Of a stretch of DNA of 64,000 bases, positions 4,068 through 56,805 are shown in pieces (the stretch's first letter is position 1; each line of letters starts with the position of its first letter). This stretch comes from a phage. The translations under genes and the position numbers were made by a program. A model generated the notes under the pieces. The model did not search any database, was not told where the DNA came from, and saw only the letters and a program-made list of their open reading frames with translations. Location: the NCBI GenBank assembly GCA_014685065.1, contig GCA_014685065.1_3930.1; one strand, given 5' to 3'.

Positions 4068-6302
4068 CTAAACACCACAACCCTCGCAATAAGCATCTTG
4101 CAGTGCAGATTTACCTACACCAATGCGACTGTTAAGGTAGTACATGGTTTTCATACCTACCGAGTTGGCATAAATCATGTACTTCAAAGCTTGAGCCAAT
4201 GATACCTTCTTAGCTTTTGCGTAGTCAACATAGAAATCTGAAGAGATAGCTTGACCAGTGAACTTTTGAACAATTGCATAACAATCAATCAGGTCAAAGG
4301 TGTCAATACCCCAAGCAATTTCATATACATACTTCAACTCTTCATAATCTGGAACAATAAACAGTACGTTACCAGTTGCAGACTTTTTAGTTAAAATAAA
4401 GTCACGAATTGGATACAAGCCATTTGTCGTATTGGTTGCCAGTGAAGAACTCTCATTAGGCATGTAAGCTTCTAATACAGAGTTTCGGATTCCACCATTT
4501 TCTTTGATACGTTGTGCTAAGTCATCCCAATCATATCGTAGTTTTGCATCATGCTTTTCATCAATCTTCTTGTTAGCTGTCTTTGGAGGAACCCAGCCTT
4601 CGGGATACTTAGTGAACTTCATGTATTCTGGAACGCCACGCTCTTTAGCAAGTCTCAGCGAGGCTTCATGCAGATAGTAAGAGTGCATCTCTGCAAGTTC
4701 ATGAAGTTTCGTTTTACCTGCTCGTGAAGAGTAGTTCACGTAGTTCTTCGCAAGGTAATGAGCCACATTTGTAAGGCCAATCCCAACAGAACGACGCTTC
4801 TGAACATGGTTACGCATCGACGGATACGGATAATCCATAAGGTCAATAACGGAGTCAACCATTGCAAGAGCATAATAAGCAACGTCAGCGTATTCATCTT
4901 CTGAAATTCTCCCTGCAACCAAACTAGCTAGGAAGCAAAGAGCTACCTCACCATCCTCTTTCACAGCATCATCTCTGTAAAGGTCTGTCTCTTTCTCAAA
5001 GCCGTACACTGGCAACACAATTTCCATACAAAGATTTGACATCTTCAAAGGCTCTTTAAATGGTGTATGTGTGTTTGCATTATTCGTGAAGAATGGGTAC
5101 ACACGGCCTGTTGCATAACGCTGCTGGATAAACAGTTTAGCAATTTCACGAGCCTTTACTCGTCTGTGCTTAACACCTGAATGCACTGCGTGACCAACTG
5201 CCATAGCAAACTCATCAGCAGATGCTGTGTAGAACATGTCATAGAGTTTTGGTGCATCTTTGTAAGAGAATAGCAACCAATCTGTATCATACTGAACACA
5301 CTGCCAGAAATAATCGTTTGTGCCGAATGAGTAGTCCATCTCATTAATACGTTTAGAAGGAACCGTTGTAGGGTGCTTCAAACGCAGTAAATCTTCAATC
5401 TGCGGGTCTAGAGCAGTGTAGAAGTTATTAGCTGAACCACCACGACTCTTCTGTTTGTTTGCCTCTACAGATGAGCGTACAAGCTTGTAATAAGGTAGTT
5501 TACCCATGTGCTCAATAGTATTTTGACGGATACCATCACCAATAGTACGAGTCTCCATCAGCATCCCAATGCCAGCTTGCTTTGTAGTCATATCATAAGC
5601 AACCTTTGCAGCAATACCGAGAGATTCGGCAGTGTCATTTGCCTTAATCAAACAGCATGACGCATAACCTGATTTAGTTGCTCTTAAACCGTTTAAATAT
5701 GGCGTAGGCGCGTTAATCTTCAGGTCAGATAGGTAAGTGTACAGCTTGATAACATCTTGCAGTCTACGGTGCTTTGGTTGCTTCTCAAAGGCTTTCATAG
5801 CCATACCCATGAACATAAATTGTGGTGACTCAAAAAGTCTTCCCGTTTTAATATCACGGATACCATACTTGTCTCTGAACTGTTTCAAGACTGCATAACC
5901 GTAAGAGATATCTTTTGAGTGCACAATGTAACCTTGCAGGTATTCAAGCTCTTCCTGTGAGTAGTCCATCTTCTCCCAAAGTCCTGCTCTCTCCATATTT
6001 TTAACGAAGGTAACCAGCGTAGGAACCTTAGTAAAGCCTCCAAAGGCTTCTTTGTAGATAATACCCAAAAGTAGCCGTCCAGCCATATCTGAGTACTCTT
6101 GAGTTTGTTTATCAACACAAACATCAATCATGGCTTGGTGCATCTCTTTTGTAGTGCAACCCTCATAGACACGTTTCATAGCTTCCATAGTGACTTCTGA
6201 CCAGATAATTCCACGTTTATCTGCCCATGATGCCCACTTATTCAGTCTTTCTGGGTCAAAGCTTACTACTGTACCGTTTGATTTTTTAATTGTCTTAATC
6301 AT
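4068..6302 (-). CDS. nrdA: ribonucleotide reductase class Ia alpha subunit
   Basis: 744 aa; N-terminal ATP-cone-like region; C-terminal tail cysteines (CEGCGV). Confidence 0.9.
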   Translation of the reverse strand: MIKTIKKSNGTVVSFDPERLNKWASWADKRGIIWSEVTMEAMKRVYEGCTTKEMHQAMIDVCVDKQTQEYSDMAGRLLLGIIYKEAFGGFTKVPTLVTFVKNMERAGLWEKMDYSQEELEYLQGYIVHSKDISYGYAVLKQFRDKYGIRDIKTGRLFESPQFMFMGMAMKAFEKQPKHRRLQDVIKLYTYLSDLKINAPTPYLNGLRATKSGYASCCLIKANDTAESLGIAAKVAYDMTTKQAGIGMLMETRTIGDGIRQNTIEHMGKLPYYKLVRSSVEANKQKSRGGSANNFYTALDPQIEDLLRLKHPTTVPSKRINEMDYSFGTNDYFWQCVQYDTDWLLFSYKDAPKLYDMFYTASADEFAMAVGHAVHSGVKHRRVKAREIAKLFIQQRYATGRVYPFFTNNANTHTPFKEPLKMSNLCMEIVLPVYGFEKETDLYRDDAVKEDGEVALCFLASLVAGRISEDEYADVAYYALAMVDSVIDLMDYPYPSMRNHVQKRRSVGIGLTNVAHYLAKNYVNYSSRAGKTKLHELAEMHSYYLHEASLRLAKERGVPEYMKFTKYPEGWVPPKTANKKIDEKHDAKLRYDWDDLAQRIKENGGIRNSVLEAYMPNESSSLATNTTNGLYPIRDFILTKKSATGNVLFIVPDYEELKYVYEIAWGIDTFDLIDCYAIVQKFTGQAISSDFYVDYAKAKKVSLAQALKYMIYANSVGMKTMYYLNSRIGVGKSALQDAYCEGCGV

Positions 6303-10942: not shown

Positions 10943-12896
10943 TTAATACAGGTGGAATCGTTGAGCTTTGACGCTGCTCTTCAGTATAGACTTCACCAGT
11001 CTCACGGTCAAACACTTCATCCTCATAATGTGGCAAAGAGTCATCGTAATGGTCTTCAGCTTCACCAATACCAAACTGTTGGCGAATATTTTCTGCTGCA
11101 CCATCAATGTCAACTCCACAACCAGAGGCTTTAATGAGACGTCCTGTATCTGGATTGTACCAAGTATGACCAGCAATACCTGTTGACTTACCGTGACGAC
11201 GGCATTTAGTTAACTTGATTTTTGTCAAGTTTTTCTTAACAGGGTCTGGGTCAACCTTGTTACGCATTAACAGAATGTTGTTCATAGAAATCTGGAAATA
11301 CGCACCAGAACCTTTAATATCCTCTTCAGAGATATCTCCACCTTCGGAGTTAGCCTTCTGACCACCTGCACTCTTACGAACGTGACAGACGTTCACCTGT
11401 GCATACTGGTAGCGTTTGCAACGACGCAATAGCTCAGATAAAACTTCCTCTTCATCCGTATCTGAACGTGACAGAGCCAACGTAATAGGGTCAAGAATAA
11501 TAATCTTACAGTCTAAGCTGTTAACAAGATAGTCAACAAACTCCAGCAAGTTATCTTGGTCAATTGCCCCTTGATGGTCAACGATGTGGATACGACGACC
11601 TTTAGACAGTTCTGCGTGTGCTCCTTTTAATTCATCCCAATCCCGTTCATCATAAGGAATCTCAGAAATCTGCTTGCTCAGGTGGATTGCACAGAGCATC
11701 TCCATCAACTCTTCATAGGTATCTTCTACAGGAATTACACCGATATTATAATCAGTTTCTTTCCAAGCTGAATAAATCATCTCACGAGTGTAAGCTGACT
11801 TACCTACTGAAGATGGTGCTGCAATAGTTGTAATCTCACCTAAACCGTAACCACCATAAGTCAGCCTGTTCAAATCTCCGAAAGATTCTGGGAAAGGAAT
11901 CAATGGAATCTGACCACGATTCTTCATTGCCTCAAAACCATCTGCAAAGTTCTTGATACCAGCAGGACAGTAACGAGGTGCATTGTAGATACGCTGCTTA
12001 AATCCTTCCAGAACTGTGTCTTTCTCTTTATAGAACTTTGTCCACCACTCGTTAAGGTCTTTTACGCCTTCTGGATACTGGAATAAACGAACCTTCTCAA
12101 TAGGTAGGATACCAGCAGCCTCTTTAGTGGCTTTAGCACCTGCTTCATCGTTATCAAAGCACAAGTAAATCTCATCAAATGATGTAATGTACTGATAGTT
12201 ATCTTTGATAGACTTGATGTTTGCACCTGATGGAACAGATACGTGACAGTAATTCTTACGACGAGATTTATCCTTAATCGCAAGAGAAGTCATATAGATT
12301 GCTGTCGCACATTCCATCTCACCTTCCCAGATGAATAGACGGTTACCACCTTCTGGAGCAATCCATGAACCGAACATTGCCAGTTCACCTTTAATGTCTC
12401 CAACACCACCAGAAAAGTCTTTTAACTTACCTCGTAGGTGTTCTTTTGGATGGTCTTCTGGGTAACGGTGACGAACACGGTAGCCAACATGTTCTAGCTT
12501 ACCATCTTCATTACGTTTGTAAGTTGGATAGAAGTGCGCATCAATTTCACCGTCACTGTCAATATCAACCTTGATACCTAAGCGTTCAAGGACTTTTGCA
12601 GGAATCTTCCTATCTTTCAAGTCCATTGCTTCTAGGTTTTCTTTTACATCGTCTAAATCCATTCCACGGAAAGTACGGTTTTTATTGTCTGAACCAGTAG
12701 AATAAGTGCTCACGATTTGTCCTTTATCAAAATCCCACTCTGGGAAACCTTTGTTACAACTAAAGCAAGTCATTGAATAAGAATCATCGTCATGATGATA
12801 GATTGAACCAGCATCTGATGAACCACAACGTGGACATGCGCAATGACCAACAAACTGACCAGCCTCTTTCAATTTACGACCTTTAGACATTAGCAC
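10905..12896 (-). CDS. bifunctional DNA primase/helicase (T7 gp4-like)
   Basis: 663 aa; N-terminal zinc ribbon (CPRCGS...CFSCN), central primase-like region, C-terminal helicase with Walker A GLGEITTIAAPSSVGKS. Confidence 0.9.
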   Translation of the reverse strand: MLMSKGRKLKEAGQFVGHCACPRCGSSDAGSIYHHDDDSYSMTCFSCNKGFPEWDFDKGQIVSTYSTGSDNKNRTFRGMDLDDVKENLEAMDLKDRKIPAKVLERLGIKVDIDSDGEIDAHFYPTYKRNEDGKLEHVGYRVRHRYPEDHPKEHLRGKLKDFSGGVGDIKGELAMFGSWIAPEGGNRLFIWEGEMECATAIYMTSLAIKDKSRRKNYCHVSVPSGANIKSIKDNYQYITSFDEIYLCFDNDEAGAKATKEAAGILPIEKVRLFQYPEGVKDLNEWWTKFYKEKDTVLEGFKQRIYNAPRYCPAGIKNFADGFEAMKNRGQIPLIPFPESFGDLNRLTYGGYGLGEITTIAAPSSVGKSAYTREMIYSAWKETDYNIGVIPVEDTYEELMEMLCAIHLSKQISEIPYDERDWDELKGAHAELSKGRRIHIVDHQGAIDQDNLLEFVDYLVNSLDCKIIILDPITLALSRSDTDEEEVLSELLRRCKRYQYAQVNVCHVRKSAGGQKANSEGGDISEEDIKGSGAYFQISMNNILLMRNKVDPDPVKKNLTKIKLTKCRRHGKSTGIAGHTWYNPDTGRLIKASGCGVDIDGAAENIRQQFGIGEAEDHYDDSLPHYEDEVFDRETGEVYTEEQRQSSTIPPVLSEDADDCPFETE

Positions 12897-49510: not shown

Positions 49511-49634
49511 TATGTTTTCTCCAAATAATTAACCATGTTTCCCCTTAAAAAAGACGGCACAGAGACCGTCAAGGAGAAACCACAATGTACGTCAGAGACA
49601 TACTGTATAAGTCTTCCTATAAAGTATAACTCTG

Positions 49635-49694
49635 TAAAAAAGCCCTGTCTAAAAATACTCTTCGGTAGCGAAAGGAAGAATACTTATAGCAGGG
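49635..49694 (-). terminator. compound hairpin + T-run, candidate terminator of the tRNA operon
   Basis: GCCCTG (49641-46) / CAGGGC (49689-94) with a nested TCTTC/GAAGA stem; on the minus strand followed by TTTTTT (A6 at 49635-40). Confidence 0.4.
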
Positions 49695-49732
49695 CATTAT
49701 TATTATTTTAATTGAGAGAGAGTAAAATAACT

Positions 49733-49808
49733 TGGAGAATCCGAAGGGACTCGAACCCTTATAAACCTGTTTTGCAGACAGGCACATAGCCATTTCTGTC
49801 ACGGATTC
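49733..49808 (-). tRNA. tRNA-Cys (anticodon GCA)
   Basis: Hand fold: acceptor GAATCCG/CGGATTC, T-arm GGGTTCGAGTCCC, anticodon loop CTGCAAA, CCA encoded. Confidence 0.6.
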
Positions 49809-49812
49809 AAAT

Positions 49813-49905
49813 TGGAGGAAGATACCAGACTTGAACTGGTACACCGATTTCTCAGCTACTGGCAGTTTAGCAAACTGCTCCCTTACCTTTTAGGGTTAAT
49901 CTTCC
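49813..49905 (-). tRNA. tRNA-Ser (anticodon GCT), class II
   Basis: 93 nt; acceptor GGAAGAT/ATCTTCC, anticodon stem GCAGT/ACTGC with loop TTGCTAA, long variable arm. Confidence 0.55.
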
Positions 49906-49906
49906 A

Positions 49907-50641
49907 TTATTTCTGTAATGCGTTCTTCATTTCTGGTGTTGCAATAGTGTCAATTACACCAGTTTTACAGGCATCATCAAACCAGTCTGGTAAGATACCT
50001 GCTAAGAACCCATTGATATTCGTTTTAAGGTACTCTGCAATAAGGGCAGCTTCTTCTTCAATCATCTGCACAACTTCATCTGCATAAGCTGTAATCTTTG
50101 AGATACCTTCATTAATCTTACTGACAGCTTGGTTAGCTAAATCAGAAACAGTATCAAGACCCTTGTCAATAGCGTCTTGTAAGTCACTTAATACATCGTT
50201 AACACTCTCTAGTGTACTGTTAATCGTATCAATAGCTTTTTGACCATATTCTGTAGCAACACCCATAATACCACTGAACGGTGTACAACCAACTTGTTCT
50301 CCTGCTGCACCCATAACATTGGAATATCCATTTGCTACCTGCATACGTGATGAAAACTCATCAATAGATTTTTGACCGTAGTCTGTCAGGGTCTTAGTAG
50401 TTGCTGTAGTGCTTGTAAGGCTTGTTGTAAAGCTGTTTAGAAGGACTGTTGTAAGTCCAGCAGCAACAAGTTTCTCCTGCATTGTAGGGTCTGTTACAGA
50501 ACTAATAGAGCTTACAAGTGATGTAGAAGCAGCTACGGTTCCACCGAGAACTGCTGCACCAGTAATAAGTGGGTTAGAAAACCCTTTACCGGTTTTTAAG
50601 AGATTAAAAATCTCCTTACCTTGTTCTGTCATCTCTTTCAT
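49907..50641 (-). CDS. hypothetical Ser/Thr/Ala-rich protein embedded in the tRNA array
   Basis: Track ORF trimmed to an internal ATG so it does not overlap the tRNA at 50660-50734; about 244 aa. Confidence 0.4.
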   Translation of the reverse strand: MKEMTEQGKEIFNLLKTGKGFSNPLITGAAVLGGTVAASTSLVSSISSVTDPTMQEKLVAAGLTTVLLNSFTTSLTSTTATTKTLTDYGQKSIDEFSSRMQVANGYSNVMGAAGEQVGCTPFSGIMGVATEYGQKAIDTINSTLESVNDVLSDLQDAIDKGLDTVSDLANQAVSKINEGISKITAYADEVVQMIEEEAALIAEYLKTNINGFLAGILPDWFDDACKTGVIDTIATPEMKNALQK

Positions 50642-50659
50642 TAAGCACCTTTGAAATTG

Positions 50660-50734
50660 GTAGTCCAGTGGGATTTGAACCCTCTTCTCATGTTTTTCAG
50701 ACACGCGCTTTAACCATATAAGCTACTTGGACTA
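50660..50734 (-). tRNA. tRNA-Phe (anticodon GAA)
   Basis: Acceptor TAGTCCA/TGGACTA, T-loop TTCAAAT, anticodon stem CGTGT/ACATG with loop CTGAAAA. Confidence 0.5.
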
Positions 50735-50739
50735 TAAAT

Positions 50740-50815
50740 TGGGGTGACCTACGGGATTTGAACCCGTATAGACCATGTTCACAGCATGGGTCATTGCCAT
50801 TTATGATAAGGCCAC
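50740..50815 (-). tRNA. tRNA-His (anticodon GTG)
   Basis: Anticodon stem CCATG/CATGG, loop CTGTGAA; T-arm ACGGGTTCAAATCCCGT. Confidence 0.6.
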
Positions 50816-50846
50816 ATTTAAGGACTCTCGTAAGAACCCTTAGAAG

Positions 50847-50922
50847 TGGCAGCGGCATAAGGATTTGAACCTTAATAGGACAGCTTCAGAGACTGTTGCA
50901 TTGCCAGTTATGCTATACCGCT
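50847..50922 (-). tRNA. tRNA-Gln (anticodon CTG)
   Basis: D-stem GCAT/ATGC, anticodon loop CTCTGAA, T-arm TAAGGTTCAAATCCTTA. Confidence 0.55.
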
Positions 50923-50927
50923 AAATT

Positions 50928-51006
50928 TGGTACTCCATATCGGATTCGAACCGATACATAACACAGATTTTAAGTCTGGCCTCTCTGCCAATTGGAGTAA
51001 TGGAGC
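50928..51006 (-). tRNA. tRNA with Leu anticodon TAA but short variable arm (class I-like)
   Basis: Acceptor GCTCCAT/ATGGAGT, discriminator A, D-loop AATTGGCA, anticodon loop CTTAAAA, T-arm ATCGGTTCGAATCCGAT; aligns with the tRNAs at 51751 and 52329. Confidence 0.45.
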
Positions 51007-51008
51007 AT

Positions 51009-51084
51009 TGGCGGGGGATGTTGGAATTGAACCAACTTCTTCGATTTCAAAGACCGAGGTTTTAACCTTGTAAACTAATCCCCT
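51009..51084 (-). tRNA. tRNA-Gln (anticodon TTG)
   Basis: Anticodon stem TCGGT/ATCGA, loop CTTTGAA; T-arm GTTGGTTCAATTCCAAC. Confidence 0.55.
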
Positions 51085-51092
51085 TTAAATCT

Positions 51093-51650
51093 TTACTTTC
51101 TCAGTGGATGAATAAAGAATGCCAACATAACTCTTTCCCTTGAGAATGCTCTTTCTTCTGGGACAACACTTTTTAGTTTCCATCCAATATAAATTCTCCA
51201 GTAAAACTGTTTACCAAAGACTTTAATTGATGGGATAAAAGCGAATAATCCCCAAGCATTACTGTTCCACATTAGGAGATAACCTGTCTGATTATCTTCA
51301 GGGTCAGAACTTACGTTGATATTACCTTTCCACTTAGTAACATCTTTTACATCTCTTCCTAATACATGGTAAGAGAAGTTATAAGCTTTGTTTCTCCAGA
51401 GCCATCCGACTCTCTGCATGTAGACACCCAGCTTACCAATCTTTCTAATCTTAGCCCATCGTTCGATATGACCTTCGTCACCATCAATTGGATTGTCATA
51501 TGTCTCCATCCATCTAAATCCGAAAGGTAAGTGGCCTTTCTTCTCACTGTAAAATGGAACTACGAAAGGTGCTAAGATAACTGCTAAGGTTGCTGCTAAT
51601 GGTTCTAGCAAAGCTAGGAAAATCCATGAAGCATATTTTAAATATCTCAT
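51093..51650 (-). CDS. hypothetical membrane protein embedded in the tRNA array
   Basis: 185 aa; N-terminal TM segment (WIFLALLEPLAATLAVILAPFVV), Trp-rich body. Confidence 0.5.
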   Translation of the reverse strand: MRYLKYASWIFLALLEPLAATLAVILAPFVVPFYSEKKGHLPFGFRWMETYDNPIDGDEGHIERWAKIRKIGKLGVYMQRVGWLWRNKAYNFSYHVLGRDVKDVTKWKGNINVSSDPEDNQTGYLLMWNSNAWGLFAFIPSIKVFGKQFYWRIYIGWKLKSVVPEERAFSRERVMLAFFIHPLRK

Positions 51651-51669
51651 CTAAATAGCCTCTTTAAAT

Positions 51670-51745
51670 TGGCGCAGGATAAGGGATTCGAACCCCTATT
51701 AACAGCTTCGTAGACTGTTGCTCTATCCATTTGAACTAATCCTGC
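51670..51745 (-). tRNA. tRNA-Arg (anticodon ACG)
   Basis: D-arm GTTC...GAGC, anticodon stem ACAGT/GCTGT with loop CTACGAA. Confidence 0.55.
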
Positions 51746-51750
51746 AAAAT

Positions 51751-51828
51751 TGGTGTTCCAAGACGGATTCGAACCGTCACTAGTACAAGGTTTGAGCTTG
51801 CATCCTCTGCCAATTGGGATACTGGAAC
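51751..51828 (-). tRNA. tRNA with Leu anticodon CAA but short variable arm (class I-like)
   Basis: Acceptor GTTCCAG/TTGGAAC, discriminator A, D-loop AATTGGCA, anticodon stem GCAAG/CTTGT with loop CTCAAAC. Confidence 0.45.
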
Positions 51829-51829
51829 A

Positions 51830-51904
51830 TGGTACTCACTAAAGGACTTGAACCTTTTTCTTCATCTTGTAAGGGTGGTGTTTTACCATATAAACTAAGC
51901 GAGT
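51830..51904 (-). tRNA. tRNA-Val (anticodon TAC), tentative
   Basis: Good acceptor, D-arm (GTTT/AAAC) and T-arm (AAAGGTTCAAGTCCTTT); anticodon stem is weak, loop read as CTTACAA. Confidence 0.4.
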
Positions 51905-51910
51905 ATGAAA

Positions 51911-51992
51911 GAGGTCTGAAGTTGTGCCGCTAACTCAACTCCGTGGAATTTGTTACGGTCTTCAGTTGACACCAGCGGTCTTTCACTTGACC
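51911..51992. other. tRNA-sized structured element without canonical T-loop
   Basis: Terminal inverted repeat GAGGTC / GACCTC about 80 nt apart with internal hairpins (CCGT...ACGG); no GTTCRA motif on either strand. Confidence 0.35.
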
Positions 51993-51999
51993 TCTGAAT

Positions 52000-52076
52000 T
52001 GGTGCTGCTCACAGGACTCGAACCTGCATTTCCATCCTTACAAGGGATGTGTAATAGCCAATTATACGAAAGCAGC
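52000..52076 (-). tRNA. tRNA-Thr (anticodon TGT)
   Basis: Perfect anticodon stem CATCC/GGATG, loop CTTGTAA. Confidence 0.6.
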
Positions 52077-52082
52077 ATTGTT

Positions 52083-52157
52083 TGGAGCATCCAGAGGGAA
52101 TCGAACCCTCAACCTCAGTTTGGAAGACTGTAATTTTCCCGTTTAAACTATGGATGC
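52083..52157 (-). tRNA. tRNA-Gly (anticodon TCC)
   Basis: Acceptor GCATCCA/TGGATGC, anticodon loop CTTCCAA, T-arm GAGGGTTCGATTCCCTC. Confidence 0.55.
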
Positions 52158-52163
52158 ACTAAT

Positions 52164-52240
52164 TGGTGGAGAAGCAGGGAATTGAACCCTGTACTTAAGT
52201 TTGCAAAACTTATGTTTTAACCATGTAAACTACATCCCCA
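52164..52240 (-). tRNA. tRNA-Ala (anticodon TGC)
   Basis: D-stem GTTT/AAAC, anticodon stem TAAGT/ACTTA with loop TTTGCAA. Confidence 0.6.
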
Positions 52241-52245
52241 ATGTT

Positions 52246-52321
52246 TGGTACAGGTGGAGGGAATTGAACCCATCGTCTTACTGATTAAGAGTCAGCCGCA
52301 TAACCATTTTGCTACACCTGC
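52246..52321 (-). tRNA. tRNA-Lys (anticodon CTT)
   Basis: Anticodon loop CTCTTAA; paralogous in sequence to the Lys(TTT) tRNA at 53966. Confidence 0.5.
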
Positions 52322-52328
52322 ATTAATT

Positions 52329-52405
52329 TGGTACACCTAGAGAGATTCGAACTCACACTGAGCAGATTCTAAGTCTGCTGCCTCTACCAATTGGGCTATA
52401 GGTGC
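52329..52405 (-). tRNA. tRNA with Leu anticodon TAG but short variable arm (class I-like)
   Basis: Acceptor GCACCTA/TAGGTGT, discriminator A, D-loop AATTGGTA, perfect anticodon stem GCAGA/TCTGC with loop CTTAGAA, variable region only about 5 nt. Confidence 0.5.
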
Positions 52406-52663
52406 ATTAAATCTTTTTAGAGAACTTCTAAGAACCTAAGCAACAAGGTTCCACAACAAGCTGTAATAACCTTAGAAGCCCTCTAAAAAGACCTAATTTG
52501 GTCTTTGCATAGTCTTGTTTAATCCGGTGACTAGAACCTTTGGAGAGCTTGATATTATCTCTTCTCCGTGACACCTACTAGGTGCTTTACTGTGCGTGTA
52601 CGACAATACACGAGGGATACCAAAGCAACATCCGAATGAAGCTTGGCTTTAAATCTTATTAGG
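52406..52663 (-). ncRNA. structured non-coding spacer within the tRNA array (candidate small stable RNA)
   Basis: No ORF and no tRNA; several hairpins (CTTCTAAG...CTTAGAAG 8 bp; AGACC-taattt-GGTCT; CGTGTA-cgacaa-TACACG). Confidence 0.3.
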
Positions 52664-52751
52664 CGGTAAGTAAAGGAGTCGAACCCTCACCGTATCTCTA
52701 CAGTGGCAACTGTTTTCAAGACAGTTTGGCTACCATTAGCCGCTACCTACC
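52664..52751 (-). tRNA. tRNA-Ser (anticodon TGA), class II
   Basis: 88 nt; perfect anticodon stem ACTGT/ACAGT with loop CTTGAAA; long variable arm; CCA not encoded. Confidence 0.55.
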
Positions 52752-52764
52752 CCTAATAAGACTT

Positions 52765-52847
52765 TGGCATGGGACGGAGGAGTTGAACCACTTTGAAACG
52801 GTTTTGGAGGCCGTTGCTCATGCCTTAGAGTCTTAACATCGTCCCAC
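52765..52847 (-). tRNA. tRNA-Trp (anticodon CCA), atypical
   Basis: 83 nt; acceptor GTGGGAC/GTCCCAT, anticodon region ACGGC-CTCCAAA-ACCGT; T-stem imperfect. Confidence 0.4.
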
Positions 52848-52989
52848 ACTATAATTCGAAGCTTACCGTATTTTCACAACACTGTAAAGCCCCTTCTCAG
52901 ATTATTTACATGTTCTGGAAAACATGAGATACAGACCACCTCCTTACACGGAGACCCGATAAGGTCGTCTAAGCAATCTGCTAACTATT

Positions 52990-53066
52990 TGGCACACCCT
53001 ACAGGATTCGAACCTGTAACTAACGATTTAGAAGACCGTTGCTCTATCCAATTGAACTAAGGGTGC
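52990..53066 (-). tRNA. tRNA-Arg (anticodon TCT)
   Basis: Anticodon stem ACGGT/ATCGT, loop CTTCTAA; T-arm ACAGGTTCGAATCCTGT. Confidence 0.55.
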
Positions 53067-53313
53067 ATTAATCTTTAAAGACTCTCTTAGAAAGCCCTTA
53101 AAGATGCCCACCTTATTAATCATACCGTGGGCGAGTACGCCAAATTCTTTGATGAGGGATTGGAAGACCTCACTGGTGTTTAGCCTATCAAGCTACTGCC
53201 AGAAAAACATTGTCGTTTGCATTTATTTTAAATTTGCAAAATAGACGCTACGCAACGAAAACTAAGGTTACTATAAAGTGGTCACATCTCAATGTCAACA
53301 ACTTTATTGAAAT

Positions 53314-53389
53314 TGGTACTGTGAGAAGGATTCGAACCTTCTGCCTTTCGGTTATCAGCCGAATGCACATCCATATGTGCTTTCACAGC
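53314..53389 (-). tRNA. tRNA-Ile (anticodon GAT)
   Basis: Perfect anticodon stem TTCGG/CCGAA, loop CTGATAA. Confidence 0.6.
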
Positions 53390-53868
53390 ATTGTTACCCC
53401 TTCGTGTACCTCTCTGTGGCAATTTGCACACAGTAATACACACTTATCAACTTCAGACTTCATTACCTCTATAGAGAAGTGTTTTTGTCCTACTGTGAAG
53501 TCCTTTGTATTAGGGTCTAAGTGGTGAAACTCTAAAGCCTTTATGCACTTATTGTATCCACAAATTGAGCAACAACCACCTTTGTAATCAACTAAAACCC
53601 TCTTAAGTTTGTCACGAGACTTTTTAACGTGTTGTGACTTCGCTTTCTTTTCTTCATCGGGGTTTTTGTATTGTTTCAGAATACCATTTGAAATACATTC
53701 ATCACAATACTTTCTTGATTTTGGTGTTTGTTTTCCACATGAATGACAAGAGCCTTCTTGTCTTCTTTTTGGATGACTCTTGTTGTTTACCCTTGCAGCA
53801 CAAGAGCGTGAACAATATTTTCCGCCTTTAACGGCTTTGTTGTCACAATCTTTATTAGCACAAAACAT
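53383..53868 (-). CDS. HNH homing endonuclease
   Basis: Trimmed to ATG 53866-53868 (RBS GGTGA) so it does not overlap tRNAs; Cys-rich N-terminal region; C-terminal HNH motif EFHHLDPNTKD...CANCHREVH. Confidence 0.7.
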   Translation of the reverse strand: MFCANKDCDNKAVKGGKYCSRSCAARVNNKSHPKRRQEGSCHSCGKQTPKSRKYCDECISNGILKQYKNPDEEKKAKSQHVKKSRDKLKRVLVDYKGGCCSICGYNKCIKALEFHHLDPNTKDFTVGQKHFSIEVMKSEVDKCVLLCANCHREVHEGVTML

Positions 53869-53884
53869 AATATCACCAACGAAT

Positions 53885-53961
53885 TGGAGGTTCAGATGGG
53901 AATCGAACCCACATTCATAGGGCTTATGAGACCCCTGCATTACCTTATCTGCGACTGAACC
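53885..53961 (-). tRNA. tRNA-Met (anticodon CAT)
   Basis: Acceptor GGTTCAG/CTGAACC perfect; anticodon stem GGGGT/GCCCT, loop CTCATAA. Confidence 0.55.
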
Positions 53962-53965
53962 ATAT

Positions 53966-54041
53966 TGGTAGAAGTGGAGGGATTCGAACCCATCGCCTGT
54001 CAGATTAAAAGTCTGCCGCATCACCATTCTGCTACACTTCC
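53966..54041 (-). tRNA. tRNA-Lys (anticodon TTT)
   Basis: Anticodon loop CTTTTAA; T-arm ATGGGTTCGAATCCCTC. Confidence 0.5.
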
Positions 54042-54045
54042 ATTA

Positions 54046-54181
54046 AAATTATCTTTGTAGATAAGCTATCCAGACTTGCTTAAGGTCTGTAGCGATGTGC
54101 CTTGTTGGGTTTAAATCTAGAATTTACCCTTTCACTCTTTGTGGTCGCATACTCACAGGTAAGCTTAATAACTTATCTACA
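54046..54181. repeat. 19-bp perfect inverted repeat flanking a ~98-nt spacer
   Basis: aattatctttgtagataag (54046-54064) is the exact reverse complement of cttatctacaaagataatt (54163-54181); inner CAGAC...GTCTG hairpin. Confidence 0.55.
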
Positions 54182-54241
54182 AAGATAATTACCAGACCGT
54201 TGTTTATCATCTTAAGTGCTACCATTACACCAACTCGACAT

Positions 54242-54266
54242 CTGCCGAGTGAAGGAATCGAACCTT
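54242..54266 (-). other. tRNA 3'-half-like fragment (T-arm plus acceptor 3' strand only)
   Basis: Canonical GAAGGTTCGATTCCTTC T-arm followed by ACTCGGC-A, but no complementary 5' acceptor strand found within 120 nt. Confidence 0.3.
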
Positions 54267-54497
54267 CGCCTTTTCTTTACCGGAGAAATAGATTGTTTAA
54301 GTTTTGCTGTAAACGGTCTTCTGTAAATTTGTTGAGCCAGACCAAGTTTTAAATTTTCAAAATTAAATTGGCTTGAAATTTCATACATTCTTGCTGTATT
54401 TGGTCTTCTGCTCCTTTAAAGAATACTCGTAAGAACCCTTTAAGGGAGGGGCTAAATAGCCCTCTCAAAACATCATCTTGAAATACTTATTATAATT

Positions 54498-54574
54498 TGG
54501 CGGTTACGAAGGGATTTGAACCCTCATCATCTCCCGTGACAGGGGAGTATTTTAACCAGTTAAACTACATAACC
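54498..54574 (-). tRNA. tRNA-Asp (anticodon GTC)
   Basis: Perfect anticodon stem CTCCC/GGGAG, loop CTGTCAC; D-stem GTTT/AAAT. Confidence 0.6.
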
Positions 54575-54580
54575 TTTATT

Positions 54581-54668
54581 TGGTGTGCCGTGTAGGAGTC
54601 GAACCTACCGAGTCTCAATGACAAGGGATTTACAGTCCCCACCGCTACCATCTACGGGATAACGACAC
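54581..54668 (-). tRNA. tRNA-Tyr (anticodon GTA), class II
   Basis: 88 nt; anticodon stem GGGGA/TCCCT, loop CTGTAAA; long variable arm. Confidence 0.5.
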
Positions 54669-54737
54669 ATTTAATTTCTATTCAGGCTAAGGACTTGCAC
54701 CTTACAAATCGGTGAGCAATCGCTTCTCTCCTAAATT

Positions 54738-54814
54738 TGGCGGTTAGTCAGGGATTCGAACCCTGTGCCATTCGCTTAACAGGCGACCGCACATACCTTA
54801 TGTGCTTCCTAACC
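54738..54814 (-). tRNA. tRNA-Asn (anticodon GTT)
   Basis: Anticodon loop CTGTTAA; T-arm CAGGGTTCGAATCCCTG. Confidence 0.5.
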
Positions 54815-54891
54815 TTAATACATTGCCAGACCGTGTTTTTTCTTTTATCCGCAAAAAGTATTTTGTTGCTGAATACGGTCTTCTGCAAAAT

Positions 54892-54968
54892 TGGAGGCGG
54901 GTGCAGGAGTCGAACCTGCCGATACCATGCTAATGAGACATGTGAGACGCCCTTTCTCTATACCCGCA
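54892..54968 (-). tRNA. tRNA with anticodon CAT (Met or Ile2), tentative
   Basis: Anticodon stem CATGT/GCATG, loop CTCATTA (position 37 is T, unusual); 1-72 mismatch in acceptor. Confidence 0.4.
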
Positions 54969-55059
54969 ATTCTTAATGACCAGACCAAATCTCTTCTTTG
55001 TCCGATTTACCTTCAGATGAATAAGATTAAGTTTGCTGTAATTGGTCTTCTGTCAAAAC

Positions 55060-55137
55060 TGGCGTTCCAGAAGGGATTTGAACCCTCAAATATCCACTTT
55101 GAAAGAGTGGTGACTTTACCATTTTGTCTACTGGAAC
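55060..55137 (-). tRNA. tRNA-Glu (anticodon TTC)
   Basis: Perfect acceptor GTTCCAG/CTGGAAC and anticodon stem CCACT/AGTGG, loop CTTTCAA. Confidence 0.6.
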
Positions 55138-55144
55138 ATTAATT

Positions 55145-55224
55145 TGGTCTCCGTTGAAGGATTTGAACCCTCGACCCCTTGCTCCCAAAGCAAGTGCTGC
55201 TAAACCAAACTGAGCTAAACGGAG
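55145..55224 (-). tRNA. tRNA-Pro (anticodon TGG)
   Basis: Perfect acceptor CTCCGTT/AACGGAG and anticodon stem CTTGC/GCAAG, loop TTTGGGA with G37. Confidence 0.6.
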
Positions 55225-55342
55225 ATAAACTTTTCAAACTCTATGTAACCACTTTAACATTATTTTTTAGTGGTTGTCAAGAACTTTTTTAAAATATTTT
55301 TCAGTATCTTAGAAAAGCTCTCATTTCGTTTCTATGTAGAAC

Positions 55343-55371
55343 ATATTAAAGGGTATCAAACACATTGTCAA
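55343..55371 (-). promoter_or_regulatory. sigma70-like promoter reading into the tRNA array
   Basis: On the minus strand: TTGACA - 17 nt - TAATAT; lies inside a GGGTAT...ATACCC hairpin just downstream of the vWA gene stop. Confidence 0.55.
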
Positions 55372-55389
55372 TACCCTTTTTAAAACTTT

Positions 55390-56805
55390 TTACCAGATGT
55401 AACGGTCAATCATTACTGCTTTGAGCATTACGCTGATTGGGTCAAACTTCTCACCACCAAGCAGAGCTTTTAAAGTGGCTGGAGAGAACCCTGATACCAT
55501 TGCTACACCATTATCCTTAACAGATACTTCGCAAGTACCATTACGGTTTGCTAAGTACCAGAATACCAGTTGTGGCATTTTGTATCCAGCTTTTTTGTAC
55601 TTACTACGAATCGCTTCAAAGTTTGTACGACCATTAGCTCCATCAACCTGATTGAACTCCATATCAGAGAAGATAATAAGCTTACTTGGCATATCTTTCT
55701 GAGTCAAGTTGTTTCTCTTACCTGTTTCAAGAATGCGGTCAAAAGCTGCTTGTAAGTTAGTTGAGCCATATTCAACGTGTCGCATCACCTGACGATGACG
55801 GTTTCGTAAATCACCACTCAGTTCGATGAAGTGAGGGTTTGTCGAATAAACCATCAACTCATTCTTAAAGCAACCTGTATTGCGTTCTGCTACATACAAG
55901 GCAAGTGATACACCAATATCCAGAGCAGTAATGGAGCCAAAATTCACCCAAGACATTGAACTTGATACATCAGACATACACAAGATGTTTTCACCTTCTG
56001 CCATCCAGTTTGGTAGTGCTTTCCACTGCTCATTAGCAACATCTGCATTACCATACTTGACAGATTTAATCACATCGTATGGGTAAACAGCACCAGCGTT
56101 AATCTTAGTCTCACCTTTTGATAAGGACTCGATGTAAGCTTTGTAACGCTCTCCATCTTTACGGTTAAACAGTTTTTGGTAACGTGCAGCAGCAAGTGAA
56201 GGAATCTTACTGTAGTCAATCTTACCAAACTCATTAGCAGAGATTTTTTGCTCAACTGTATCAGATAGTGCAGACAACAGTGTGCGATACTCTTTCTCAC
56301 TCAAGTTTGCAAACTTGCAGAAACGTTTTACAAACTGTTTGTGACGTGGTTTTACTCGTGGTAACCACTTAGCTGCTAAACCTGCTGTTGCAGGGTCTAG
56401 TAAAGCTGCTTCTAAATGTTTGAAGGCATCTGTCTCGAAACGAGTACCTACAAAGATTTTGAAGTCATCAAAGCGACCAAGCTCTGCAATCTTATCCATA
56501 ATGCGAAGAACCTGCGTAGGCTCTAAAACTTTATCTTCAATCGCTTGAAGTAAAACAGTTCGGAAAGCTTTACGCTCACCCATACCTTCTCGTACATCTC
56601 GCATATGCAGTAAAATACGAACTGCAACATCAACATCCTCATGCAAAGCTTTGTAGAACAAGTCTGGTAAGATTTCTACATTGCTACGGCTGGAACCAGC
56701 AGCTTTGTAAAAGTCCACAAGAGCAGACATTGATGAAGTATGGTTTACAGCACCATTTTCAGTTCGACCTGCATGAAGGTGCGCATGTTTAAATAATTCG
56801 CTCAT
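55390..56805 (-). CDS. von Willebrand factor A (vWA) domain protein, possibly Ro60/TROVE-like
   Basis: 471 aa; C-terminal region has a MIDAS-like DxSxS motif (MSDVSSSMS) and later LIIFSDMEF; N-terminal half is helical. Adjacent to the tRNA array. Confidence 0.5.
   Translation of the reverse strand: MSELFKHAHLHAGRTENGAVNHTSSMSALVDFYKAAGSSRSNVEILPDLFYKALHEDVDVAVRILLHMRDVREGMGERKAFRTVLLQAIEDKVLEPTQVLRIMDKIAELGRFDDFKIFVGTRFETDAFKHLEAALLDPATAGLAAKWLPRVKPRHKQFVKRFCKFANLSEKEYRTLLSALSDTVEQKISANEFGKIDYSKIPSLAAARYQKLFNRKDGERYKAYIESLSKGETKINAGAVYPYDVIKSVKYGNADVANEQWKALPNWMAEGENILCMSDVSSSMSWVNFGSITALDIGVSLALYVAERNTGCFKNELMVYSTNPHFIELSGDLRNRHRQVMRHVEYGSTNLQAAFDRILETGKRNNLTQKDMPSKLIIFSDMEFNQVDGANGRTNFEAIRSKYKKAGYKMPQLVFWYLANRNGTCEVSVKDNGVAMVSGFSPATLKALLGGEKFDPISVMLKAVMIDRYIW

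Follow-up and report, generated by a model that had tools for sequence, protein, structure and literature searches.

A Felix O1-type phage tRNA array with four candidate Y-like RNAs downstream of a Ro60-like protein gene

The tRNA array analyzed here occupies positions 49635–55371 of a 64,000-nucleotide (nt) stretch of phage DNA (GenBank assembly GCA_014685065.1, contig GCA_014685065.1_3930.1), referred to below as the window; the genes, RNA elements, promoters and terminators located in it below are all on the minus strand. Sequence comparison identifies the window as a genome of Felixounavirus (Felix O1-like) and the array as the known tRNA cluster of the Felix O1 type. The region 49500–55500 matches 315 phage records at 80%–99% identity, 213 of which cover at least 80% of it, and nearly all of the records come from Felix O1-like phages of Escherichia, Salmonella, Shigella and Citrobacter. 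Over 98% of the region, Felix O1 itself shows 94.2% identity, with the gene order kept. As a set of tRNA genes, the array is already known (Felix O1 in 2010, Sf14 in 2025) and adds nothing new. A preliminary description of this DNA had read it as tRNA genes alone and so missed four conserved, structured RNAs in the spacers, which are linked to a Ro60-like protein gene upstream. We consider it probable, at roughly 0.65, that the array, made up of 26 canonical tRNAs and a Trp-like RNA in blocks, is in its promoter-proximal third also a Y RNA locus, and that these four elements, A1 to A4, are likely partners of the Ro60-like protein.

The Ro60-like gene (55390–56805) encodes a protein of 471 amino acids, in which Pfam recognizes only DUF2828 and DUF7788 and no TROVE domain. 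An AlphaFold (AF2) model built on 33 homologues, with a mean predicted local distance difference test score (pLDDT) of 87, places a vWA domain beside a helical-repeat ring. When the model was compared with the PDB by Foldseek, the top eight matches were all full-length Ro60 structures (9kop, 9l5y, 2nvo, 2i91, 9nfa and others) from Thermus phage phiLo, Deinococcus (Rsr), Xenopus and human. They align over the full length of the model with E values of 2e-8 to 3e-6 and template modeling (TM) scores of 0.45–0.56; the matches below them are isolated vWA domains only. The MIDAS motif (DxSxS...T...D) is intact, with D279, S281, S283, T349 and D381 invariant in the 33 homologues. As judged from the model, the product has a full-length Ro60 fold and lies outside Pfam TROVE. 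Sequence searches with the protein gave nothing significant by phmmer against the PDB or in NCBIfam, and a profile of the family reached Ro60 in the PDB only at an E value of 0.7, in the vWA part. Homologues are found in 710 phage records, and those of mycobacteriophages (∼33% identity) are annotated as "Ro-like RNA binding protein". The DUF2828-type family as a whole has more than 2,500 homologues in a protein search, in phages of Proteobacteria, Firmicutes and Actinobacteria. The orthologous protein of Bas63 (Felixounavirus JohannRWettstein), gp130, was described in a 2024 preprint as Ro60-like, encoded upstream of tRNAs and able to counter the Ppl defence (PMC11482910). Its authors also speculated about Y RNAs hidden among the tRNAs (PMC11482910), an independent hint toward Y RNAs in the array, although only a guess there.

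Downstream of this gene, at distances of 335–1200 nt and on the same strand, the sequence AGAAGACC-N5-CAGCAA occurs four times, followed each time by NN-GGUCUGG 40–110 nt later (repeat family D12). We refer to this arrangement, in which a 7-bp stem leads into NNN-CAGCAA, as the handle. The elements that it delimits are three short RNAs, A1 (54977–55055), A2 (54823–54888) and A3 (54335–54412), and one long, YrlA-like RNA, A4 (54189–54326). The array runs tRNA-Glu, A1, a tRNA with anticodon CAT, A2 and tRNA-Asn, with A3 and A4 further on, and the elements are separated from neighboring tRNAs by 3–8 nt, the spacing found between tRNAs. In all four, RNAfold predicts an outer helix of 3–4 base pairs (bp), an asymmetric loop of AGA against G, a helix of 7–8 bp and a single-stranded NNN-CAGCAA. 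The two positions beside AGACC pair with the two before GGUCU and covary among the copies (AA/UU, GU/AC, AA/UU and GUU/AAC). The outer helix is paired at 4/4 positions in 17/17 distinct Ounavirinae copies, in that register only.

Within this common plan, A1 has the outer helix UGAC/GUCA, the AGA/G internal loop, the 7-bp stem AGACCAA/UUGGUCU and UUA-CAGCAA, and encloses an inner hairpin of 5 bp with a 7-nt loop. A2 consists of UUGC/GCAA, the AGA/G loop, the stem AGACCGU/ACGGUCU and AUU-CAGCAA; its outer helix is changed by compensation to UUAC/GUAA in Felix O1. A3 combines AGC/GCU, the AGA/G loop, the stem AGACCAA/UUGGUCU and AUA-CAGCAA with an inner hairpin bearing a GCCAA loop. In A4 the outer helix UUAC/GUAA, the AGA/G loop, an 8-bp stem and UAC... 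CAGCAA are accompanied by a hairpin, UUUCU-CCGGUAA-AGAAA, and by three tRNA-like arms, namely a T-arm (GAAGG-UUCGAUU-CCUUC), a closed acceptor-like hairpin (ACUCGG-CAGAUG-UCGAGU) and a D-arm (GUGU-AAUGGUA-GCAC). In Moogle the acceptor-like hairpin is replaced by CCCUUC...GAAGGG, again a compensatory change. The A3-A4 region is 95%–100% identical in ∼240 Felixounavirus records, in most of which it is unannotated, and the elements are 78%–89% conserved in Suspvirus and Mooglevirus.

An alternative register, GGUCUGG...AGAAGACC, which would enclose the CAT tRNA as the core of a Y RNA, was rejected because covariation of the bases beside the 5-bp core is confined to the AGAAGACC...GGUCUGG register and because the CAT tRNA of Yersinia phage P778 is not flanked in this way. 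A 58-amino-acid open reading frame (ORF) at 54212–54388, given as a hypothetical protein in some records, was rejected as a gene, being missing in Felix O1, Moogle and P778. Parts of such "tRNA clusters" are mis-annotated. The deposited record of REP5 (L086) has a 131-nt "tRNA-Thr(GGT)" at 4550–4680, extending from the A3 loop to the acceptor-like hairpin just past the A4 T-arm, and other records have short "hypothetical proteins" annotated over the A3 and A4 RNAs.

The occurrence of the handle was surveyed in 85 loci, comprising 80 IMG/VR loci with relatives of the protein at 38%–98% identity together with annotated relatives. The scan pattern, derived from the window, was an [A/U/G]G-N5 stem, N3, C[A/C]GCAA and, no more than 200 nt away, a complementary 7-mer, and a strict rule required in addition a G after the stem. 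The pattern matched 155 times on the strand of the gene and 7 times on the other, and shuffled sequence gave 6 matches; under the strict rule the figures were 134 on the gene strand and 1 on the opposite strand. The strict copies cluster around the gene, with 100 of the 134 within 1 kb of it (64 downstream and 36 upstream), and a strict element lies within 3 kb of the gene in 57 of the 85 loci. Even the bare sequence motif is strand-biased (261 versus 70), and a pairing partner accompanies 59% of the plus-strand motifs as against 10% of the minus-strand ones. In many loci with the handle (L013, L015, L017, L020, L022, L025, L027 and L028 among them), the nearest 7 kb contain no tRNA, and the element therefore follows the protein gene rather than the tRNAs. 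At the handle position CAGCAA is found, with CCGCAA in a minority, and the stem is followed by a conserved G and no U-tract. Many phages have a single copy, 27–60 nt after the stop codon of the gene or just before its start codon, and tandem copies reach six or seven, some of them kilobases from the gene (L026 and L071). In a reverse search of IMG/VR with a 15-base handle pattern, 51 of 124 matches had a perfect 7-bp partner. The gene was present in the stored stretch for 19 of these 51, always on the same strand, and for 3 of the 73 unpartnered matches.

A profile combining a position-weight matrix and a pair matrix, with a free gap allowed, was trained only on phages whose protein is less than 50% identical to that of the window. 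Its four best matches on both strands of the 64-kb window were A4 (34.1 bits), A2 (29.6 bits), A1 (28.9 bits) and A3 (22.6 bits), and the next match scored 18.1 bits. With the same profile, two copies were located immediately behind the Ro-like gene in Mycobacterium phage Rumpelstiltskin and three immediately ahead of the gene in Listeria phage List-36, at 30–35 bits, and no match above noise in the 45-kb tRNA region of T5, where there is no Ro60-like gene. A covariance model (R1) made from trimmed distant handles was dropped; it could not span interiors of 30–110 nt and found no elements.

Between the two halves of the handle, the interiors differ widely. Element lengths are bimodal, at ∼50–70 nt and 95–185 nt, and a canonical T-arm is present in 22 of the 45 distinct long copies and in none of the short ones. 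The 21 long elements that were aligned share the closing stem, CAGCAA, an A-rich linker, a T-arm, an acceptor-like hairpin, a D-arm and the 3′ stem, and RNAalifold finds compensatory changes in 12 of the 14 predicted pairs. The loop of the acceptor-like hairpin in the long copies is often GCCAA, like a tRNA 3′ end rejoined to the 5′ end, and the D-arm is often UAGCUCAGUUGGUAGAGC. Two copies have the arms in normal tRNA order, and others have unrelated interiors. The picture suggested by these sequences is that of a constant handle with exchangeable modules, as Y RNAs are described.

Among the closest known counterparts are the bacterial YrlA and YrlB RNAs associated with Rsr (Salmonella rsr-yrlBA-rtcBA, PMC4201824; RF02553). 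Both systems have small RNAs beside the gene of a Ro60-fold protein, with 5′ and 3′ ends paired in a stem that bears conserved nucleotides. In both, RNAs with a T-arm, an acceptor-like hairpin and a D-arm in this order (A4 and many long relatives) occur together with shorter RNAs that lack the module, and A1–A3 resemble YrlB in having no tRNA-like module. The arms of YrlA follow the order V, T, AS, D (Chen et al., 2014, PMC4201824). A gene for RtcB stands near the Ro60-like gene in the Listeria phage relative, as in the Salmonella operon. Unlike Rsr, the protein of the window is of the DUF2828/DUF7788 type and not Pfam TROVE, and unlike YrlA and YrlB its RNAs are embedded in a tRNA array. Four long relatives (in L026 and L071) score 29–39 bits with the Rfam YrlA model, whose threshold is 69; the T/AS/D core of these relatives fits the YrlA alignment, and the closing stem and 5′ motif do not. 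The model has no match in the Rumpelstiltskin or List-36 loci. By analogy, then, A1–A4 may be like YrlA and YrlB in their working, yet they are not members of Rfam YrlA. The Ro60 of Thermus phage phiLo with Yrl1 and Yrl2 (PMC12135203; 9KOP, 9L5Y) offers a second comparison, in which a phage Ro60 ring is likewise accompanied by two adjacent Y-like RNAs. The phiLo protein is the best structural match to that of the window, at a sequence identity of 16%. The phiLo RNAs, in contrast, were selected on the basis of a CGAA motif and are located upstream of the gene, with no tRNA array.

In List-36 (L208; 1426–1977, 2620–2884 and 5810–7021), three handles precede the Ro60-like gene, and its surroundings include a near-threshold ROOL RNA (91.5 bits versus 99.1), tRNAs and a gene annotated as an RtcB-type "tRNA splicing ligase". 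The arrangement seems to echo the bacterial rsr-yrl-rtcBA operon.

The anatomy of the locus, together with known Ro60 biology (PMC4201824, PMC12135203), suggests how such a system might operate. Host sigma-70 RNA polymerase would start at the promoter-like sites P1 and P2 (∼55336 and ∼55244) and again at P3 (∼53263), and would stop at the terminators T1 and T2, so that tRNAs and Y-like RNAs are cotranscribed. Host tRNA-processing enzymes would excise the tRNAs, and the same cuts would free A1–A4, whose paired 5′ and 3′ ends would protect them after release. The Ro60-like protein is proposed to bind the handle, that is, the bulged helix and the single-stranded CAGCAA. The variable module, tRNA-like in A4, may recruit or mimic a partner that binds tRNA, much as Ro60 is tethered to a nuclease by Y RNAs in bacteria. 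While the tRNAs would supply decoding capacity, the particle of Ro60-like protein and RNA may act in RNA surveillance or counter-defence.

Several observations weigh against a Y RNA locus. The GNCGAAN0-1G 5′ motif of YrlA is missing, the 7-bp stem and NNN-CAGCAA standing there instead, and Rfam YrlA has no match to A4 or elsewhere in the window even at E ≤ 10. The protein matches neither TROVE nor any PDB entry at the sequence level; the fold alone matches, with TM scores of ∼0.5. In 28 of the 85 loci there is no strict element within 3 kb of the gene. The profile score of A3 (22.6 bits) is no better than the maximum obtained in 20 random 64-kb strands (22.8 bits), and the copies in Yersinia phage P778 deviate, with 6-bp stems and A for G after the stem, and score too low to pass the threshold of the profile. 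In addition, stem pairing was part of the search rule of the survey, and the 99% pairing found there carries no independent weight, unlike the strand asymmetry, the position of the copies and the train-and-test profile.

Other explanations of the elements have to be set against the same data. The array might be a plain tRNA operon in which A1–A4 serve as processing or stability hairpins that aid host RNases, with no link to the Ro60-like protein. Such a role would suit elements placed exactly between tRNAs, at 3–8 nt, and strong hairpins do occur in other spacers (52406–52500 with a z score of −6.9, 53067–53105 and repeat family D16), in an array whose tRNA function is well supported. Processing hairpins would, however, leave unexplained why the handle stands beside the Ro60-like gene in loci that have no tRNA within 7 kb, why it is missing from the tRNA region of T5 and why most copies, 100 of 134, cluster within 1 kb of the gene, and a cleavage signal has no need of the complete tRNA-like module found in many copies. 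We regard this explanation as unlikely. The handles might instead be cis-acting sites in the mRNA or precursor and not small RNAs of their own, used for autoregulation, attenuation or termination in the control of the Ro60-like gene or of read-through into the tRNAs. No U-tract follows the stem, its place being taken by the conserved G; tandem copies reach six or seven, with some kilobases off (L026 and L071); and the copies of the window lie 335–1200 nt downstream of the gene, past two promoter-like sites and two tRNAs. Cis-regulation is possible for the single copies that many phages have close to the gene, 27–60 nt past its stop codon or immediately ahead of its start; it is unlikely for the tandem arrays and for copies with a tRNA-like module, and as a general account we find it improbable.

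We give very little credence to the idea that A1–A4 are tRNA pseudogenes in decay, or repeats that recombination and the traffic of homing endonucleases left behind as debris. The tRNA-like arms of A4, part of which the ARAGORN-based annotation of REP5 calls a tRNA, and a degenerate T-arm in the Asn-to-Tyr spacer (repeat family D13) are what such remnants might look like, but the stems change by compensation and not by decay. Furthermore, the conservation of 95%–100% in ∼240 Felixounavirus records and of 78%–89% in Suspvirus and Mooglevirus is not that of debris, nor is a handle common to phages of Actinobacteria and Firmicutes.

If A1–A4 are indeed Y-like RNAs, their exact coordinates and a searchable signature become available for the RNA component of a phage Ro60-like system that so far consisted of a protein and a guess (PMC11482910). 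Neither these RNAs nor the handle are found in Rfam 15 or, beyond the guess in the Bas63 preprint, in the searchable literature. Such RNAs would further indicate that Ro60/Y RNA particles are widespread in phages, in a form missed by the current Pfam TROVE and Rfam YrlA models, and would open the counter-defence against Ppl attributed to the Bas63 orthologue to tests on the RNA itself, in an E. coli phage that is easy to work with. A wider reading, which we put forward tentatively and would not yet call probable, is that the stem and the NNN-CAGCAA handle define a large, hitherto undescribed class of phage Y RNAs with a fixed dock and an exchangeable interior, which may be missing or may consist of an acceptor-like hairpin, of a tRNA mimic (complete or permuted) or of another fold. 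Set free in Felix O1-like phages as by-products when the tRNA array is processed, such RNAs would form a counter-defence or RNA-repair particle with Ro60-like proteins of the DUF2828 type, and this, if true, would explain the neutralization of Ppl by the Bas63 orthologue.

The T5 tRNA region (NC_005859) is similar in that ∼25 co-oriented tRNAs are arranged in blocks, with many promoters, HNH endonucleases and small ORFs. Non-tRNA "stable RNAs of unknown function", some of them "tRNA-like", also lie between the tRNAs of T5. The species 1 and species 2 RNAs of T4 are a similar case. Unlike the window, this region of T5 has neither a Ro60-like gene nor the handle, and the tRNA-Leu of T5 is of class II and its tRNA-Trp normal.

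With regard to the tRNA genes, ARAGORN recovers 26, all between 49733 and 55224, whereas the preliminary description had counted about 27; the additional gene, assigned to Trp, is called by no tool. The anticodons listed there agree with ours except for Trp, so that the set called by the predictors covers 19 amino acids, as in 11 related loci, and not all 20. The Rfam tRNA model, the sole family to reach threshold over the whole window, gives gathering scores to 24 of the 26 genes. Starting from the upstream end, the genes found by both programs are tRNA-Pro(TGG) (55145–55224), tRNA-Glu(TTC) (55060–55137), tRNA-Asn(GTT) (54738–54814), tRNA-Asp(GTC) (54498–54574), tRNA-Lys(TTT) (53966–54041), a tRNA with anticodon CAT and U73 (53885–53961), tRNA-Ile(GAT) (53314–53389), tRNA-Arg(TCT) (52990–53066), tRNA-Ser(TGA) (52662–52751), tRNA-Leu(TAG) (52329–52405), tRNA-Lys(CTT) (52246–52321), tRNA-Ala(TGC) (52164–52239), tRNA-Gly(TCC) (52083–52157), tRNA-Thr(TGT) (52000–52076), tRNA-Val(TAC) (51830–51904), tRNA-Leu(CAA) (51751–51828), tRNA-Arg(ACG) (51670–51745), tRNA-Gln(TTG) (51009–51084), tRNA-Leu(TAA) (50928–51006), tRNA-Gln(CTG) (50847–50922), tRNA-His(GTG) (50740–50815), tRNA-Phe(GAA) (50658–50733), tRNA-Ser(GCT) (49813–49905) and tRNA-Cys(GCA) (49733–49808). 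The two called by ARAGORN that stay below the Rfam gathering score are tRNA-Tyr(GTA), with a long variable arm (54581–54668), and an atypical tRNA with anticodon CAT (54892–54968). CCA is encoded in 25 of the 26 genes, the exception being tRNA-Ser(TGA).

The Felix O1 cluster was published with 22 tRNAs (Whichard et al., 2010, PMC3185647), and that of the Moogle-like Shigella phage Sf14 has 26 for 19 amino acids (PMC12482277). Genes and order in the Felix O1 and Ounavirinae clusters are those of the window, at 94%–96% DNA identity. Like the window, the Ounavirinae clusters have 22–26 tRNAs for 19 amino acids, are interrupted by HNH endonuclease genes and lie between an "RNA-binding/vWFA" gene and the terminase module. 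The window differs from Felix O1 in having tRNA-Arg(TCT) and both tRNA-Ser genes, one HNH gene versus three, and no other inserts. As far as the tRNAs are concerned, there is no essential difference between the window and the published clusters, the descriptions of which mention neither Y-like RNAs nor the Trp-like RNA. The standard published reading for this group of phages is that the tRNA set supports decoding when host tRNAs are scarce or cleaved (PMC3185647, PMC12482277, PMC11482910). The tRNAs are real, and their role in decoding is presumably as published.

Some of the tRNAs are unusual. The three with Leu anticodons are only 77 nt (TAG), 78 nt (CAA) and 79 nt (TAA) long and have variable loops of 5–7 nt, a class I shape, whereas bacterial tRNA-Leu is of class II (class definition in PMC2377443). 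They retain A73 and a Leu-like D-loop, AAUUGG(U/C)AGA, and for their homologues in Sf14 the Leu isotype model gives the best score (PMC12482277). Both tRNAs with anticodon CAT have U73, versus the A73 of Met, fMet and Ile2 tRNAs. The one at 54892–54968 also has a U.C mismatch at positions 1–72 (A.A in the homologue of Yersinia phage P778, locus L003, 10015–10091) and U37 in the loop CUCAUUA. The Sf14 homologues of the CAT tRNAs score best with the Cys isotype model (PMC12482277). In P778, two sequences at ∼11000–11145 and 11237–11400 are tRNA-like, with matching acceptor strands, good T-arms and insertions of 60–100 nt, and are not called by ARAGORN.

The gene taken for tRNA-Trp (52765–52849) is a different kind of RNA. 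It has a 10-bp acceptor-like stem, an invariant GAUGUUAAGAC between this stem and a short D stem (a gap of 10 nt versus the usual 2), a 5-bp stem closed by a 9-nt loop with UCCAA, and a T stem of 4 bp. CCA is present in the loop, and the 3′ end is G-CCA, as in E. coli tRNA-Trp. The 7-bp acceptor stem and the 7-nt anticodon loop of a canonical tRNA-Trp are both lacking. Neither ARAGORN nor the Rfam tRNA model calls a tRNA-Trp in 12 genomes (the window and the 11 related loci), and a canonical tRNA-Trp in relatives was rejected as none occurs in these loci. The RNA is 91%–100% conserved in Felix O1, Moogle and others and recognizable in P778, where AACGG/CCGUU of the anticodon-type stem has become GUAGG/CCUAC and the D and T stems are also changed by compensation. 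With compensatory changes in three stems among the window, Moogle and P778, the fold identifies 52765–52849 as a maintained, structured and non-canonical tRNA-like RNA.

The promoter and the terminator proposed at the two ends of the array are both present. At the upstream end, P1 (55343–55371) has the form TTGACA-17-TAATAT and keeps its position in Felix O1, garuso, Moogle and IMG/VR relatives; at the downstream end, T1 (49636–49695) consists of a 20-bp hairpin followed by U6, with a dG of −28 and a z score of −5.6. They are not the only such signals. A second promoter-like site, P2 (55251–55280), is TTGACA-18-TAAAGT with an extended −10 TG, and TTGACG-17-TAAAGT is found at the equivalent place in P778. 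An internal one, P3 (53270–53298), TTGACA-17-TATAGT, matches at 11/12 positions and follows tRNA-Ile in every Felixounavirus and Moogle locus checked. A further terminator-like hairpin with U6, T2, lies at 49547–49570. Promoter-like sites as a whole are not in excess (14 versus 14.6 in shuffles), but P1, P2 and P3 are constant in position across every Felixounavirus and Moogle locus examined, in two genera. Because of this conservation, a single primary transcript for the whole array is doubtful. No usable Felixounavirus transcriptome was found in the literature. A 12-bp hairpin at 55348–55379 (minus strand; AAAGGGUAU...AUACCCUUU) encloses the −35 box of P1 directly after the stop codon of the Ro60-like gene and may link promoter activity to termination of that upstream gene.

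The picture of an operon packed head-to-tail gives way to one of blocks, parted by three protein genes and by structured spacers. The spacing of 4–10 nt stated for most of the genes fits about half of the spacers (13 of 25, at 1–7 nt); the remainder comprise one of 31 nt, four of 69–95 nt and seven of 238–752 nt, and the tRNA genes fill 2035 of the 5492 nt spanned (37%). Two of the protein genes were recognized by Pfam, one for a DUF7217 protein of 244 amino acids read from an ATG at 50641 (49907–50641; 735 nt in the Felix O1 homologue) and one for a DUF7338 protein of 185 amino acids (51093–51650). The third, an HNH endonuclease gene (53383–53868) between the CAT tRNA and tRNA-Ile, was identified by the motif CANCHREVH and by homologues annotated as HNH in Felix O1 and garuso; the ORF has no Pfam match at E < 0.01. 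It is missing from REP5 and LTH02, where the flanking tRNAs are 2 nt apart, and presence and absence at a precise site between tRNAs are typical of homing endonucleases.

Very stable hairpins or multi-branch folds are predicted in the minus-strand spacers at 52406–52500, 53067–53105, 54044–54182 and 51900–52003. The z score is −6.9 for 52406–52500, and −3.9 and −2.75 are the other values in the three spacers folded on their own; 53067–53105 was folded only within a 144-nt stretch (z of −3.4). A 25-nt motif (UAAGGGUUCUUACGAG...) recurs at 50817–50841, 53074–53098 and 54416–54440. The stable hairpins and this motif may be RNase processing sites. Finally, the 69-nt Asn-to-Tyr spacer (54669–54737, minus strand) has a 7-bp closing stem, the degenerate T-arm AAGG-UGCAAGU-CCUU and a loop with UGUAA that resembles the anticodon loop of tRNA-Tyr, and similar CUGUAAGAG motifs are present in the corresponding spacer of P778.

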